A DNA stretch of 12,708 bases. It comes from Candidatus Hermodarchaeota archaeon (GTDB lineage: Archaea; Asgardarchaeota; Hermodarchaeia; Hermodarchaeales; Hermodarchaeaceae). The translations under genes and the position numbers were made by a program. Under the pieces are notes generated by a model. The model had not been told where the DNA came from and did no database searches. It worked only from the letters and a program-made list of their open reading frames with translations. Where the stretch lies: the NCBI GenBank assembly GCA_016840065.1, contig JAEOTB010000045.1, forward strand, positions 1 through 12,708, in the 5' to 3' direction. Each line of letters starts with the position of its first letter. Within the stretch, counting starts at the first letter, position 1. Below are positions 3,276 through 12,708 of this stretch, one piece after another.

Positions 3276-3611
3276 CTAAGCGGTACTCTGACAAGGCGGG
3301 TCGTATCCGAAATTCATCCAATGCTCGTGCTTTAACTTCTTTTCCCGCTCTTCCGCTTTTTCCATACTTTCTGTTTCCTCATAGCGGAACCATGTGGCCT
3401 TCCACTTCGCAAAACAATACTCCGGGTTGCTTTGCTTTTGTTCAAAGTGTTCCTTCAATTTCTCTGAAAGAATTCCGTGCCCGTAGTAGATGGGGTTCTT
3501 GGAGTATTCCCCAATCTCATAGACTCCTGGGCTTGAAGGAAGCGCTTTAATCGTAGCCTCGTCAAAACGTAACCACTCTTCTTTAATTGGCAAACTATAA
3601 TTCAGCTCCAC
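3276..3611 (-). CDS. Small stand-alone GIY-YIG-like (UvrC N-terminal-like) domain protein
   Basis: LPSSPGVYEI...IYYG resembles the GIY-YIG bipartite motif. It is followed by L..KL..H, F...E....AEERE..L and a terminal PPCQ. GTG start with GGTGGAG upstream. Confidence 0.65.
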   Translation of the reverse strand: MELNYSLPIKEEWLRFDEATIKALPSSPGVYEIGEYSKNPIYYGHGILSEKLKEHFEQKQSNPEYCFAKWKATWFRYEETESMEKAEEREKKLKHEHWMNFGYDPPCQSTA

Positions 3612-9118: not shown

Positions 9119-10195
9119 TCAGCTTCCAGTCTGGGAACTAAAGAGGGTGCTGAACTGCATTAATACCTGCAAATCACCCTCGAACTTGAAATCACCTTGA
9201 ATAAAAGCTTGGGCCCCATCTATTCGCCCCTCACTTATTGCCACCCATGTTTTTGCGGGTCCCTCTAAAAGCAGGGTGGGTTTAGAAACAGACCCTTCTT
9301 TTCCTTGGCATTTCTGTTCGCGGATCGTGAAATACCAGTGGAGTGTTTCAGGACCTGAATGTAGTACCAGCTGAATGGTGGCATCCAAGCCCTGGGCTGC
9401 TGATGGGTCGAATGCTTGGGGTATCGCCCCCAACAAGGAACGTAGCTTTACAAAGGTTTGTTCGTCATCCTCAGATGGTGCAGCAGCTGTGGTTGAGGGC
9501 TGTGGTTCTTCCTCCACTTGGGGAATGGTTAGCCATCCCTGTTCCTTCCAGTATTCGTAGTCTGCTTTGAAGAACTTGCGATACTTATAGATGAGATCAC
9601 GGAAGAAAGCATGAGCCCGGCGCTGTTCACCGGTCTCTGGATATTCGTGTTGTTCGCGAATAGCTGTGACCAGTTGGCGTCCAAGGCGACGGGCATAAGC
9701 GACGACAACATCCTGTTGCTCAAGGAGGCCTGGAGCTGCAGCTATACCACAAACCGTTCCCACAGGTGCGACACCGAAGGCGACGAGTACTCCGAGAAGA
9801 TAGTCGGCAGTGGGAACATCCATGAAACCTGCAGAGACAGCCACGGATATACCATACTTACCATGAAAGCTAGGTCGATGCCCGAGGGGGAGGCAACGAT
9901 CAAGGAAGACTTTCATCTGACCAGTTACAGTGCCAAGATAGACTGGAGAGGCTAGAATTATGCCATCAGCCTCCCGCATTTTATCATGAATTGCTGATAC
10001 ATCATCTTTCTGGTTGCATGCGCCCTTTGTAAGGCAATTGGCGCAGCCAACGCAGTACTTGATTTTCTGTTTAGAAAGAACAATCGTTTCGATTTCCACA
10101 CCCTTTCCTGTGCAGCCAGCAAGCACTTCGGAGAGTACCCCATTGGTTGCCCCTCGAAGACCATGAGGGGACCCGAGAATCGCGAGTATCTTCAT
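9119..10195 (-). CDS. Iron-sulfur flavoprotein / NADPH-dependent FMN reductase (multimeric flavodoxin) fused to a C-terminal SCP2 sterol/lipid-binding domain
   Basis: The N-terminal domain has MKILAILGSP, CVGCANCLTKGAC (Cx2Cx2Cx5C) and ADGIILASPVY..VTGQMKVFLDR. An acidic Pro/Ala linker leads to SCP2 hallmarks: F.PSAAQGLDATIQL, W..I..G.IDGAQAFIQG.FKFEGDL..LM.F. Confidence 0.9.
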   Translation of the reverse strand: MKILAILGSPHGLRGATNGVLSEVLAGCTGKGVEIETIVLSKQKIKYCVGCANCLTKGACNQKDDVSAIHDKMREADGIILASPVYLGTVTGQMKVFLDRCLPLGHRPSFHGKYGISVAVSAGFMDVPTADYLLGVLVAFGVAPVGTVCGIAAAPGLLEQQDVVVAYARRLGRQLVTAIREQHEYPETGEQRRAHAFFRDLIYKYRKFFKADYEYWKEQGWLTIPQVEEEPQPSTTAAAPSEDDEQTFVKLRSLLGAIPQAFDPSAAQGLDATIQLVLHSGPETLHWYFTIREQKCQGKEGSVSKPTLLLEGPAKTWVAISEGRIDGAQAFIQGDFKFEGDLQVLMQFSTLFSSQTGS

Positions 10196-10241
10196 TAATC
10201 CATTTCAACTCCAAGTCAGCGTTGGAACGAGCAATCGTAGA

Positions 10242-10255
10242 TTATAAGGTTTTTT
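10242..10255 (-). promoter_or_regulatory. Putative archaeal BRE/TATA box for the flavoprotein-SCP2 gene
   Basis: The minus strand reads AAAAAACC-TTATAA about 47 nt upstream of the ATG at 10195. Confidence 0.55.
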
Positions 10256-10401
10256 GCTTCACCGAAGTGAGATTTAATCGCGTTGAGAATTTCTTTTGAT
10301 TTGGATACCCCCCCGATATCTAGAAATATGTAATAAGCGTCAGGAATATATACTAATCAGCTCTGCTGAGTGATAGCTTTAGAAATATTGGAAGGAACAT
10401 C

Positions 10402-10875
10402 ATGTCTGACAGGTTTCTAAACCAAAAGGTCCTCATATACGATCCCCGCAAATGCTCGGGATGCGAATACTGTGCAGTGGTCTGTTCCTTTCACCACTAC
10501 GGCAAAATTGACATCGCACAGTCCTTCGTACAGGTTTTTCGCGATGAATCAAAGCCTGTTGCTTTCATAAGCGCAATTTGTACCCACTGTGAGTACCCTC
10601 TATGCGAAGCAGCGTGTCCCACTGAACCCAAGGCAATCACAAAGGACCCTGAGACCGGACTCGTACTCCTTGACACACTAAGATGTATCGGGTGTAAATC
10701 CTGTAGATTCGCCTGCCCTATCTCAATCCCCCATTACGATGAGGACCGAGGGACCAGTAGCAAATGCGACTTTTGCGACGGAGATCCCCTGTGCGCAAAA
10801 TACTGCAGCACAGGTGCGATAAGGGTAGTTCCGAGAAAAGAGGCAAAGCAATTCATGGAGGAGATAACCAAATGA
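10402..10875 (+). CDS. 4x[4Fe-4S] ferredoxin-like electron-transfer subunit (CooF/HycB/DmsB-like)
   Basis: Has four Cys groups: CSGCEYCAVVC, CTHCEYPLCEAACP, CIGCKSCRFACP and CDFCDGDPLCAKYC. GGAAGG lies upstream of the ATG. Confidence 0.92.
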   Translation: MSDRFLNQKVLIYDPRKCSGCEYCAVVCSFHHYGKIDIAQSFVQVFRDESKPVAFISAICTHCEYPLCEAACPTEPKAITKDPETGLVLLDTLRCIGCKSCRFACPISIPHYDEDRGTSSKCDFCDGDPLCAKYCSTGAIRVVPRKEAKQFMEEITK

Positions 10876-11150
10876 GTGAAGATGAAGAGCGACTCTATCC
10901 TTGGAGAAAAGCCGTAAAAACCCTACCTGACACGGTTAAAATCCAGGTAGTCAATCTAATCAAAATGGGTCACGTTCCACAACTTTCCGGCTCCCGAGAG
11001 GACGCTAGGGAAAAGCTTGGGATAGACCGGGCTCCCCCTACCGCTTACAAGGATAAATCCGCACTTTTAGAACTTCAACAACTCATCAAAGAGTCAGGTC
11101 TTGATGAGAAGATAGCCTGGAATTGGAGGAAGGGAAAACCAGACTACTAA
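10872..11150 (+). CDS. 92-aa protein resembling the C-terminal (non-Fe-S) region of heterodisulfide reductase subunit C
   Basis: ATG 10872 overlaps the upstream stop (ATGA) and follows a GGAGGAG SD. The sequence KMGHVP......AREKLGIDRAPPTAYK...ALLELQQLIKESGLDEKIAWNW matches the recalled methanogen HdrC C-terminal pattern (GH.VP...R..LGL...PPT.....ALEEVQKII...GFD..I.Y.W). It has no cysteines and sits directly before hdrB. Confidence 0.7.
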   Translation: MSEDEERLYPWRKAVKTLPDTVKIQVVNLIKMGHVPQLSGSREDAREKLGIDRAPPTAYKDKSALLELQQLIKESGLDEKIAWNWRKGKPDY

Positions 11151-11162
11151 GGAGAGTTAGCC

Positions 11163-12029
11163 ATGGCAAAGACTTACGCGTTATTCCTTGGGTGCTTCAT
11201 TCCAGCTGTCCAGCCCTTCGCAGAGGTTTCACTCCGGAAGGTGGCCTCCAAACTAAGAATCAAACTCGAAGACATACAGGGTGCAACCTGTTGTCCAGTT
11301 CCTGAAATCATCCGTTTATCCGATTACCCCGCCTGGTGTTCAATTGCAGCCAGAAACCTCACCTTGGCTGAAGACATGAATAAGGATACTATGGTGGTCT
11401 GCACCGGATGCTGGGAAACCCTGTCAGAAGCCCACGAGGCCCTGCTCCATGACCCAGAACTCCTTGAAGAGGTCAACACCAAACTAGGGGCCGTAGACAG
11501 GGAATTCACTGGTAAAAGCAAGGTCGTCCACTTGCTTGAGGTCCTCGTTGAGAAAGTCGGTGTAGAGAAAATCCAGAAAGCTGTGAAGCGCCCCCTGACT
11601 GGGCTCAAAGTCGCGGTCCAGTATGGATGCAAGTACTACCGTACAGAAGATGAGAAATTCGTCAAACATTTCGATGAAGTCCTCAAAGCTATTGGTGCAA
11701 CCATCGTAGAGTATGGGGCTGAACGAGTCTGCTGTGGATACCCCAAGAGTCTCGACTCCCTTGATGAAGCCATCGAAGAGCGGACCAAATGGAAGTTTGA
11801 GAAAATCAAGGAATCCCAAGCCGATTGCCTAGTAACCTGCTGCCCTGGTTGCTATGATATGATGGAGAAATCCCAATTCCTACTCCGAAGACAGAAGCTC
11901 CGTTACAATATTTGCCAGGTCCATCTTGTCGAGTTGATTGCCCTAGCCTTCGGGTTTTCGCCCCAAGAAATCGGACTGGACACCCACCGCATAAAATGTG
12001 ATGCATTGATCCAGAAACTTAGTAGGTGA
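11163..12029 (+). CDS. hdrB: Heterodisulfide reductase subunit B family protein (two CCG domains)
   Basis: YALFLGC, ATCCP, AARNL.LAE, VCTGC..TL, KRPLTGLKVAVQYGC, VCCG, CPGC and LIALAFG give two Cx31-39CCx35-36CxxC-type motifs. Confidence 0.9.
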   Translation: MAKTYALFLGCFIPAVQPFAEVSLRKVASKLRIKLEDIQGATCCPVPEIIRLSDYPAWCSIAARNLTLAEDMNKDTMVVCTGCWETLSEAHEALLHDPELLEEVNTKLGAVDREFTGKSKVVHLLEVLVEKVGVEKIQKAVKRPLTGLKVAVQYGCKYYRTEDEKFVKHFDEVLKAIGATIVEYGAERVCCGYPKSLDSLDEAIEERTKWKFEKIKESQADCLVTCCPGCYDMMEKSQFLLRRQKLRYNICQVHLVELIALAFGFSPQEIGLDTHRIKCDALIQKLSR

Positions 12030-12035
12030 GAGAAG

Positions 12036-12467
12036 ATGACGTTAATGGACAAACTACGAGACAAGATGAAAGCGCTACTAAAAGACGACTATCTTGGTGA
12101 AACAAAAGACAAATACAGCCGCTACTACATACGCATCCCCTCCAATCGAAACCGTGACATCACCCAACTATTATCAGACGAACTAGACGGAAGGCTAGTC
12201 GGGATTTCAGCTACTGATGAGGGGACAAGCGGTTTTGACGTGGTCTACCATTTTGATTTCACACACCAAGAGCGCAAACTCAACATCGTAGTCAAGATGA
12301 GGATTCCTCGAAACAAACCCGAGATTGCCTCGGTGGCAGATATCGCCTGGTCAGTCAACTGGGCAGAGCGGGAACTAATGGACTTGATGGGTATCAAGTT
12401 CCCCGGACACCCCGATCCGCGAAAGCTCTTCCTACCCTATGCGTGGCCAGAAGAGGAGGTGGCCTAA
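12036..12467 (+). CDS. NuoC/MbhK/EchD-like (complex I 30 kDa) subunit of a group 4 hydrogenase/complex I-like complex
   Basis: Shows L.GISATD.G..FDVVYHF, SVADI.WSVNWAERELMDLMGIKFPGHPDPRKLFLP..WP. An AGGTGA SD overlaps the hdrB stop. Confidence 0.9.
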   Translation: MTLMDKLRDKMKALLKDDYLGETKDKYSRYYIRIPSNRNRDITQLLSDELDGRLVGISATDEGTSGFDVVYHFDFTHQERKLNIVVKMRIPRNKPEIASVADIAWSVNWAERELMDLMGIKFPGHPDPRKLFLPYAWPEEEVA

Positions 12468-12708
12468 ATGGGCAAACCAAAGGAAAAAGTAAAGACAATC
12501 CCACTCAAAGTCGATAAAGGCACAGGATCAGATTTCATTGTCCCCATCGGACCCTTTCATCCAGCCCTCCTTGAAGGCGAATTCTTCAAACTCAAAGTTG
12601 ATGGTGAGCGCGTCCTTGAGGCTGATGTTAAGCTGGGTTACAACTACCGAGGTATTATGAAGCTCGCTGAGAGTCGTACCTACTGGCAGGATATCTACCT
12701 CGTCGAAA
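12468..12708 (+). CDS. N-terminus of a group 4 [NiFe]-hydrogenase large subunit / NuoD-like subunit (3'-truncated by the window edge; missing from the ORF track)
   Basis: Manual translation gives MGKPKEKVKTIPLKVDKGTGSDFIVPIGPFHPALLEGEFFKLKVDGERVLEADVKLGYNYRGIMKLAESRTYWQDIYLVE..., with the family motifs GP.HP.L.E, DGE.V and GY..RG..K. The ATG directly follows the upstream TAA, with a GGAGGTG SD at 12455-12461. Confidence 0.9.
   Translation, partial: MGKPKEKVKTIPLKVDKGTGSDFIVPIGPFHPALLEGEFFKLKVDGERVLEADVKLGYNYRGIMKLAESRTYWQDIYLVE

Follow-up and report, generated by a model that had tools for sequence, protein, structure and literature searches.

The window analysed here is the whole of contig C20, a stretch of 12,708 nt from a 2.59-Mb metagenome-assembled genome (MAG, G000; 84% complete, 5% contamination) of a Hermodarchaeota archaeon, and its right-hand end carries a run of plus-strand genes. 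The run opens with a gene for a HycB/CooF/DmsB-type ferredoxin (10402–10875; 157 aa with 16 Cys and four ferredoxin motifs; Pfam Fer4_11, 8.4e-17), whose NCBIfam matches are of the DmsB, HybA and HydN types and whose PDB matches, HycB of formate hydrogenlyase (FHL; 7z0s_B) among them, are Fe–S subunits of oxidoreductases and hydrogenases. It is followed by a short gene that we term mini-HdrC (10872–11150) and by an HdrB-like gene with two CCG domains (11163–12029; Pfam CCG, two matches; TIGR03288, 9.7e-72 and 241.7 bits, below the cut-off of 345), in which all ten motif cysteines are present and both CCG motifs are intact (C11-C43C44-C80xxC83 and C156-C190C191-C227xxC230). The last two genes encode a NuoC-like protein (12036–12467; PF00329, profile positions 2–110 of 124) and the N-terminus of a group 4 [NiFe]-hydrogenase large subunit (12468–12708), which is cut by the contig end and shares 70% identity with the large subunit of genome G004. 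The last 127 nt of the window (12582–12708) recur without a mismatch at the start of contig C99 (L033) when that contig is read in reverse complement, as if the assembly had broken at k=127; C99 encodes the remainder of the large subunit (RICGIC, DPCMCC), then a NuoL-like gene of 665 aa, and NuoH-like, NuoI-like, membrane and NuoB-like genes. Both Ni-binding CxxC motifs of the large subunit are present on C99, as they are in its relatives. An antiporter-like subunit is present as well, the 665-aa ORF having been assigned by position and size relative to the NuoL-like gene of G004 (PF00361, 1.2e-46).

Divergent from this operon, the minus strand of the window encodes a 358-aa NADPH-dependent FMN reductase with a C-terminal SCP2 sterol-carrier fusion (9119–10195), a gene that is also found on contig C70. 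In the window's genus it occupies the position that is taken in the sister genus g2 (L015:10787–14843, L017:10710–14741) by a cluster of four genes that immediately precedes the ferredoxin gene and is read in the same direction; judged from its gene sizes (~368, 285, 264 and 429 aa), it resembles a [NiFe]-hydrogenase of the cytosolic group 3b type. Elsewhere in the same genome lies a second group 4-type large-subunit paralogue (C4:51545–52654, L031; 47% identical to the G004 large subunit), and a small minus-strand ORF of the window (3276–3611; DUF7508 with a weak GIY-YIG match) is unrelated to mini-HdrC.

The arrangement of the operon was compared across nine loci from seven Asgard families. 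At all nine, the operon of a group 4 hydrogenase, with its NuoC-, NuoD-, NuoL/N-, NuoH-, NuoI- and NuoB-like genes (Pfam), also contains the genes for a four-cluster ferredoxin, mini-HdrC and HdrB, and the NuoD-like subunits have both Ni-binding CxxC motifs. The mini-HdrC sequence occurs either on its own or fused to NuoC, and hdrB directly follows it in 9 of 9 loci, fused or split; the ferredoxin gene stands directly upstream of the stand-alone form, and operons with the fusion begin with it. An earlier note, made from the letters of this DNA without database searches, had supposed that electron relay was outsourced from mini-HdrC to another protein, and the ferredoxin found at all nine loci is a candidate for that part.

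The same note had described mini-HdrC as an intact, cysteine-free ORF with a strong Shine–Dalgarno sequence, translationally coupled to the gene before it and placed directly upstream of hdrB, all of which the sequence bears out. Direct translation of 10872–11150 (plus strand) gives 92 aa and no Cys; a Shine–Dalgarno-like GGAGGAG (10857–10863) lies 8 nt before the ATG (10872–10874), which overlaps the TGA of the ferredoxin gene (10873–10875) as ATGA, and hdrB starts at 11163. In the mechanical ORF list the frame begins at 10764 and runs into the ferredoxin gene (128 aa), a mis-start that the note had also recognized; as the position equivalent to 10872 is the start in every homologue of the family alignment, the start of mini-HdrC is placed at 10872.

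Residues ~14–92 of mini-HdrC (10911–11147) are homologous to the C-terminal region of HdrC (~107–183 in solved HdrC), with direct sequence support over residues 23–89. Profile positions 86–144 of the 144 in TIGR03290 (HdrC, NCBIfam) match mini-HdrC residues 23–81 (E=1.3e-6), at 28.5 bits, far under the curated equivalog cut-off of 160 bits. A sequence search of the PDB returned HdrC chains only (8rvu_c, residues 123–183 of 185, E=7.3e-8; 5odc_C, residues 115–180, E=4e-6), and in these alignments GHVP, LGI..PPTAY and LLELQQLI fall on their HdrC counterparts, so that the motifs named in the earlier note (GH.VP, LGL...PPT and ALEEVQ.II...G) proved to be real. Furthermore, an AF2 model built from the 26-sequence family alignment (pLDDT 79), in which the N-terminal 20 residues of the monomer are coil (pLDDT 60–75), resembles the HdrC chains of solved Hdr complexes: the best seven Foldseek matches in the PDB were HdrC chains (E down to 4e-5, probability 1.0; TMq 0.63, rmsd 2.6 Å over 74 columns), and the next match had an E-value of 2.8. 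A Pfam search with the 92-aa sequence gave no match, PF00329 included. The N-terminal ferredoxin domain of HdrC, with its two CxxCxxCxxxCP motifs for two [4Fe-4S] clusters, is absent from the cysteine-free mini-HdrC; as it is this domain that defines HdrC, mini-HdrC is not a bona fide HdrC. A canonical HdrC of 178 aa with both CxxCxxCxxxCP motifs adjoins a second hdrB on contig C78 of the same genome.

The earlier note had further held that mini-HdrC keeps nothing but the C-terminal region of HdrC. The loss of the Fe–S domain stands, but the first 13 residues carry a motif from the C-terminus of another protein, NuoC: residues 9–13 (YPWRK, codons 10896–10910) correspond to its (G)HPLRK(D), an assignment that rests on fused intermediates, the direct match of the stand-alone protein being five residues long. 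Mini-HdrC is therefore a chimera of a NuoC-tail motif (residues ~9–13) and an HdrC tail. The intermediates are NuoC::mini-HdrC fusions of 187–224 aa, found in two other Asgard families (G022, G025) and in six further database proteins (P0029–P0034), in which a complete N-terminal NuoC domain is followed by the mini-HdrC sequence. When the fusion from G022 was aligned with NuoC of solved complex I, EGKYPLRKP fell opposite RGHPLRKD (HMMER), the alignment to solved complex I subunits extending through ...LPYEWPEGKYPLRKP against ...ILTDYGFRGHPLRKD, and residues 143–219 of the same protein matched HdrC 5odc_C 107–183 (E=8e-11). Its AF2 model (pLDDT 90.6) superposes over residues 3–141 on the HycE N-domain 7z0s_E (Z 20.1, rmsd 1.5 Å, 139 residues) and on NuoC 8qby_C residues 9–152; as the structural match runs through residue 141, the motif belongs to the NuoC fold as solved.

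The NuoC proteins encoded beside stand-alone mini-HdrC show the complementary change. PF00329 matches reach profile position 116–118 of 124 in the fusions versus 110 of 124 in split NuoC (the window and the NuoCD of G030); the window's NuoC, which ends in ...LPYAWPEEEVA and has no (G)HPLRK, stops in its PDB alignment one residue short of the motif. According to the alignments, this protein and mini-HdrC (MSEDEERLYPWRK...) are two complementary pieces of the fusion. The PLRK motif that should follow ...WPE was likewise absent from NuoC or NuoCD in the window and in five of five checked relatives with a stand-alone mini-HdrC, and the α/β core of NuoC (~120 residues) is absent from mini-HdrC, being encoded separately at 12036–12467. 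All five of the longer database matches of the family profile were PF00329 (NuoC) fusions; a ferredoxin::mini-HdrC or mini-HdrC::HdrB fusion was not seen among these five, which counts as weak evidence. In the split NuoC proteins (window 12036–12467 and the L015, L017, L008, L009 and L029 orthologues) the same short tail, WP[ES]-EEV[AG], stands throughout where PLRK would be, and this new C-terminus itself appears to be under constraint. One stand-alone mini-HdrC (L029:864–1133, G041) keeps YPWRK and the C-terminal helices and does not have the otherwise nearly invariant LG..PPTAY, reading ...ALGFFFTATLNTD... instead.

Mini-HdrC is under strong purifying selection, as the dN/dS comparison proposed in the earlier note makes plain: pairwise values against two relatives were 0.05–0.10 (dS 0.7–1.0), the same as for its neighbours (ferredoxin gene, 0.05–0.06; hdrB, 0.07), and conservation of this degree goes far beyond chance. 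Contig C70 of the same MAG has a 95%-identical copy in the same setting, and a congeneric genome has one that is 90% identical. C70 (L002:1–2129) corresponds to window positions 9119–11500 and carries a second FMN-reductase/SCP2 gene, ferredoxin, mini-HdrC and the start of hdrB at 92–95% protein identity (dS 0.6–0.7), and represents either a related population that was binned along with this one or an old duplication in which the gene order is unchanged. The search for homologues with a word index found one close relative only. The exhaustive search of 1.84 billion representatives yielded 23 matches, of which ~19 are proteins of 84–113 aa, nearly all cysteine-free; the family as a whole consists of proteins of ~85–100 aa. 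The check that the note had proposed, for similarly short homologues next to hdrB, came out in its favour. By their source names, the only basis for the taxa of the metagenomic representatives P0009–P0027, the relatives come from Methanomethylicota/Verstraetearchaeota, Ca. Culexmicrobium thermophilum, Baldrarchaeota and Thermoprotei, those of Methanomethylicota and Ca. Culexmicrobium thermophilum being 43–44% identical to mini-HdrC. Among 301 Asgard genomes, full-length matches occurred in ~19 genomes of eight families, and the remaining genomes gave canonical HdrC matches only, over profile positions ~18–90. The search for related loci with alignment A3 recovered seven loci only, all from Hermodarchaeota/Promethearchaeota. 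The broad family alignment A2 has no conserved stretch of 7–10 columns, and in the 26-sequence alignment P10, R46 and A64 are invariant and K13 nearly so. As the earlier note had anticipated of standard pipelines, NCBI labels the relatives 'hypothetical protein', but IMG names some of them 'heterodisulfide reductase subunit C'.

In a maximum-likelihood tree of the shared region, 23 stand-alone sequences fall on one side of a 99/94 branch, nine fused sequences group together (88/74), and canonical HdrC stands apart (100/99); the grouping therefore points to one change of architecture, with a single origin each for the split and the fused form. The direction of this change is taken from the NuoC-motif argument, the tree giving none by itself. 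A recent deletion, which the note had named as an outcome that would overturn its reading, was rejected, the stand-alone form being one clade that spans Asgard archaea and three Thermoproteota lineages, with canonical HdrC kept elsewhere. A frameshifted or misassembled full-length hdrC was rejected too, the upstream gene belonging to another ferredoxin family and being complete and conserved.

We class mini-HdrC as a derived adaptor subunit of the Ehd-like type of complex, in this case that of an Asgard archaeon, and it most likely bolts HdrB onto a membrane-bound hydrogenase. In the reading that we favour, to which we assign a probability of roughly 70%, it would act as an Fe–S-free adaptor that completes NuoC and clamps HdrB, and the HycB/CooF-like ferredoxin would carry the electrons. 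The N-terminal segment would dock in trans, entering the NuoC/large-subunit module where the motif sits in complex I, FHL and MBH, and the HdrC-like helices would clamp HdrB as in HdrABC, tethering it to the peripheral arm; in the HdrABC structure of Wagner et al. from 2017, HdrC ~107–183 is reportedly the HdrB-binding part. Homology, gene fusion and synteny are what suggest both the docking and the clamping, and from them we infer the scaffold role that the earlier note had proposed. HycB and CooF each connect a partner enzyme to a group 4 hydrogenase, HycB doing so in formate hydrogenlyase. By analogy, the co-translated four-cluster ferredoxin of the window could stand in for the two lost HdrC clusters, forming with the clusters of NuoB and NuoI the path along which electrons would pass between the [NiFe] site and HdrB with its two non-cubane clusters. 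The complex is envisaged to couple H2 oxidation to disulfide reduction, or the reverse, with ion translocation. The M. maripaludis HdrC residues Y81, T79, Y84, E94 and K98 have been assigned to a proton path to the active site (PMC13518236); as these lie in the part that is deleted in mini-HdrC, the chemistry or active-site surroundings of HdrB may differ here.

Other explanations for the protein were weighed against this one. Mini-HdrC could be a detached C-terminal extension of NuoC whose helices bind the ferredoxin or some other partner, and not HdrB. Its fusion to NuoC in several lineages, the NuoC motif that it carries and its translational coupling to the ferredoxin gene all fit such an origin; however, the helices are specifically homologous to the part of HdrC that is retained next to HdrB in HdrABC, and hdrB directly follows in every locus examined, fused or split, so that we consider this unlikely. 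Slimmer still is the chance that mini-HdrC serves in assembly or maturation, holding HdrB while the non-cubane clusters are inserted, and is no stoichiometric subunit of the mature complex. A small protein without cofactor ligands that is co-translated just ahead of hdrB would suit the task, yet its covalent fusion to the structural protein NuoC elsewhere argues for permanent residence, and the homologous region sits in a stable subunit in the solved HdrABC structures. Given that the homology is to HdrC specifically, that hdrB is always next to it and that other lineages have it joined covalently to NuoC, both alternatives are possible and less likely than an adaptor. A functionless relic of hdrC in decay, a pseudogene or a frameshift or assembly artefact, as might be suspected from the loss of a whole Fe–S domain, the lack of a Pfam match and a mechanical ORF call that extends into the upstream gene, is excluded by conservation and dN/dS, since selection is as strong as on the ferredoxin gene and hdrB, since size, start and motifs are kept across Asgard archaea, Methanomethylicota, Culexarchaeia and Thermoprotei, and since the gene before it encodes an entire four-cluster ferredoxin from a different family, no ferredoxin::mini-HdrC fusion occurs among the longer matches and the genome has a canonical hdrCB pair at another place.

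For the adaptor, a history can be proposed. In complex I, FHL and MBH alike, the PLRK motif belongs to NuoC itself; because of this, a contiguous NuoC–HdrC-tail ORF probably preceded the stand-alone form. Such a NuoC::HdrC-tail fusion, still found in other Asgard families, would later have split just upstream of the PLRK motif, after which the fragment with the motif would have moved with hdrB. A wider proposal, which we hold tentatively and at somewhat under even odds, is that every Ehd-type 'HdrC' may carry no electrons and be a cofactor-free tether of NuoC motif and HdrC tail that records the grafting of soluble HdrBC onto a complex-I-like scaffold, serving in Asgard archaea an ion-pumping H2:disulfide respiration that would run in a single complex with a non-methanogenic disulfide. 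In this graft, deletion of the Fe–S domain would have fused NuoC to the HdrC tail, and later fission would have taken the NuoC motif along with that tail.

To our knowledge, none of the HdrB-coupled group 4 hydrogenases (Ehd, Ehe, Drh, Ehg) has been characterized biochemically. Metabolic models nevertheless call on them, both for the newly cultured methanogens among the Thermoproteota and for non-methanogenic archaea, and their 'HdrC' has so far been treated as an ordinary HdrC. Genome studies of Methanomethylicia, Culexarchaeia and Bathyarchaeia have put forward HdrB-associated group 4 hydrogenases (PMC9723716, Kohtz et al. 2022; PMC12700198); Ehd was named from genomes by Borrel et al. 2019, as cited in PMC9723716, which describes the Ehd/Ehd-like operon with 'HdrBC', calls the subunit 'HdrC' and gives as the net reaction proposed from genomes an H2-dependent disulfide reduction coupled to ion export. 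These descriptions of the Ehd type (PMC9723716, PMC12700198) make no mention of missing Fe–S ligands, a NuoC tail or ferredoxin wiring, and our literature search for a truncated, cysteine-free HdrC or its NuoC tail found nothing relevant. For Hermodarchaeota, group 4 and group 3b hydrogenases have been reported with no mention of an Hdr link (PMC8163825). The operon type is thus already known from genomes, with the subunit listed as 'HdrC', and the N-terminal NuoC motif of mini-HdrC is the new point.

The proposed wiring of these complexes is changed by a subunit free of Fe–S ligands, by a HycB/CooF-type ferredoxin that is constant across the nine loci and by a piece of NuoC that is missing from its partner. 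Mini-HdrC in this way corrects what had been assumed for an uncharacterized class of energy-converting complexes and gives testable structural predictions; it also offers a clear case of gene fission displaced from a domain boundary, which leaves a structural motif to be supplied in trans. The module is placed in several Asgard lineages, namely Hermodarchaeia, Baldrarchaeia and probably Odinarchaeia, and its presence there matters for how the metabolism of hydrogen and of thiols and disulfides is viewed in the relatives of the eukaryotic host.

Compared with HdrC of HdrABC (TIGR03290; 5ODC chain C, 8RVU chain c), mini-HdrC is homologous over its C-terminal ~75 residues in sequence and predicted fold, and it shares the GH.VP, LG...PPT and A..E.Q motifs and the gene position directly upstream of hdrB; unlike HdrC, it has a NuoC motif in place of the N-terminal ferredoxin domain, and its proposed partner is a membrane hydrogenase and not HdrA. 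With Ehd, Ehe and Ehd-like systems the locus has in common a group 4 hydrogenase, 'HdrBC' and an antiporter-like subunit, whereas the host, a member of the Hermodarchaeota, is an Asgard archaeon. With respect to NuoC, Nqo5, NDUFS3, the HycE N-domain and MbhK (PF00329), YP[W/L]RK of mini-HdrC corresponds to the (G)HPLRKD that ends the NuoC fold, and in other Asgard families mini-HdrC forms the C-terminal extension of a complete NuoC; in contrast to these proteins, the stand-alone form is devoid of the α/β core and would supply the last motif only, in trans. Finally, in FHL and the CO-dependent hydrogenase (HycB–FdhF, CooF–CooS; 7Z0S), a multi-cluster ferredoxin links a soluble partner to the NuoI/NuoB/large-subunit arm, as is proposed here, but the partner at this locus is the disulfide reductase HdrB, which would need an additional, cofactor-free adaptor.
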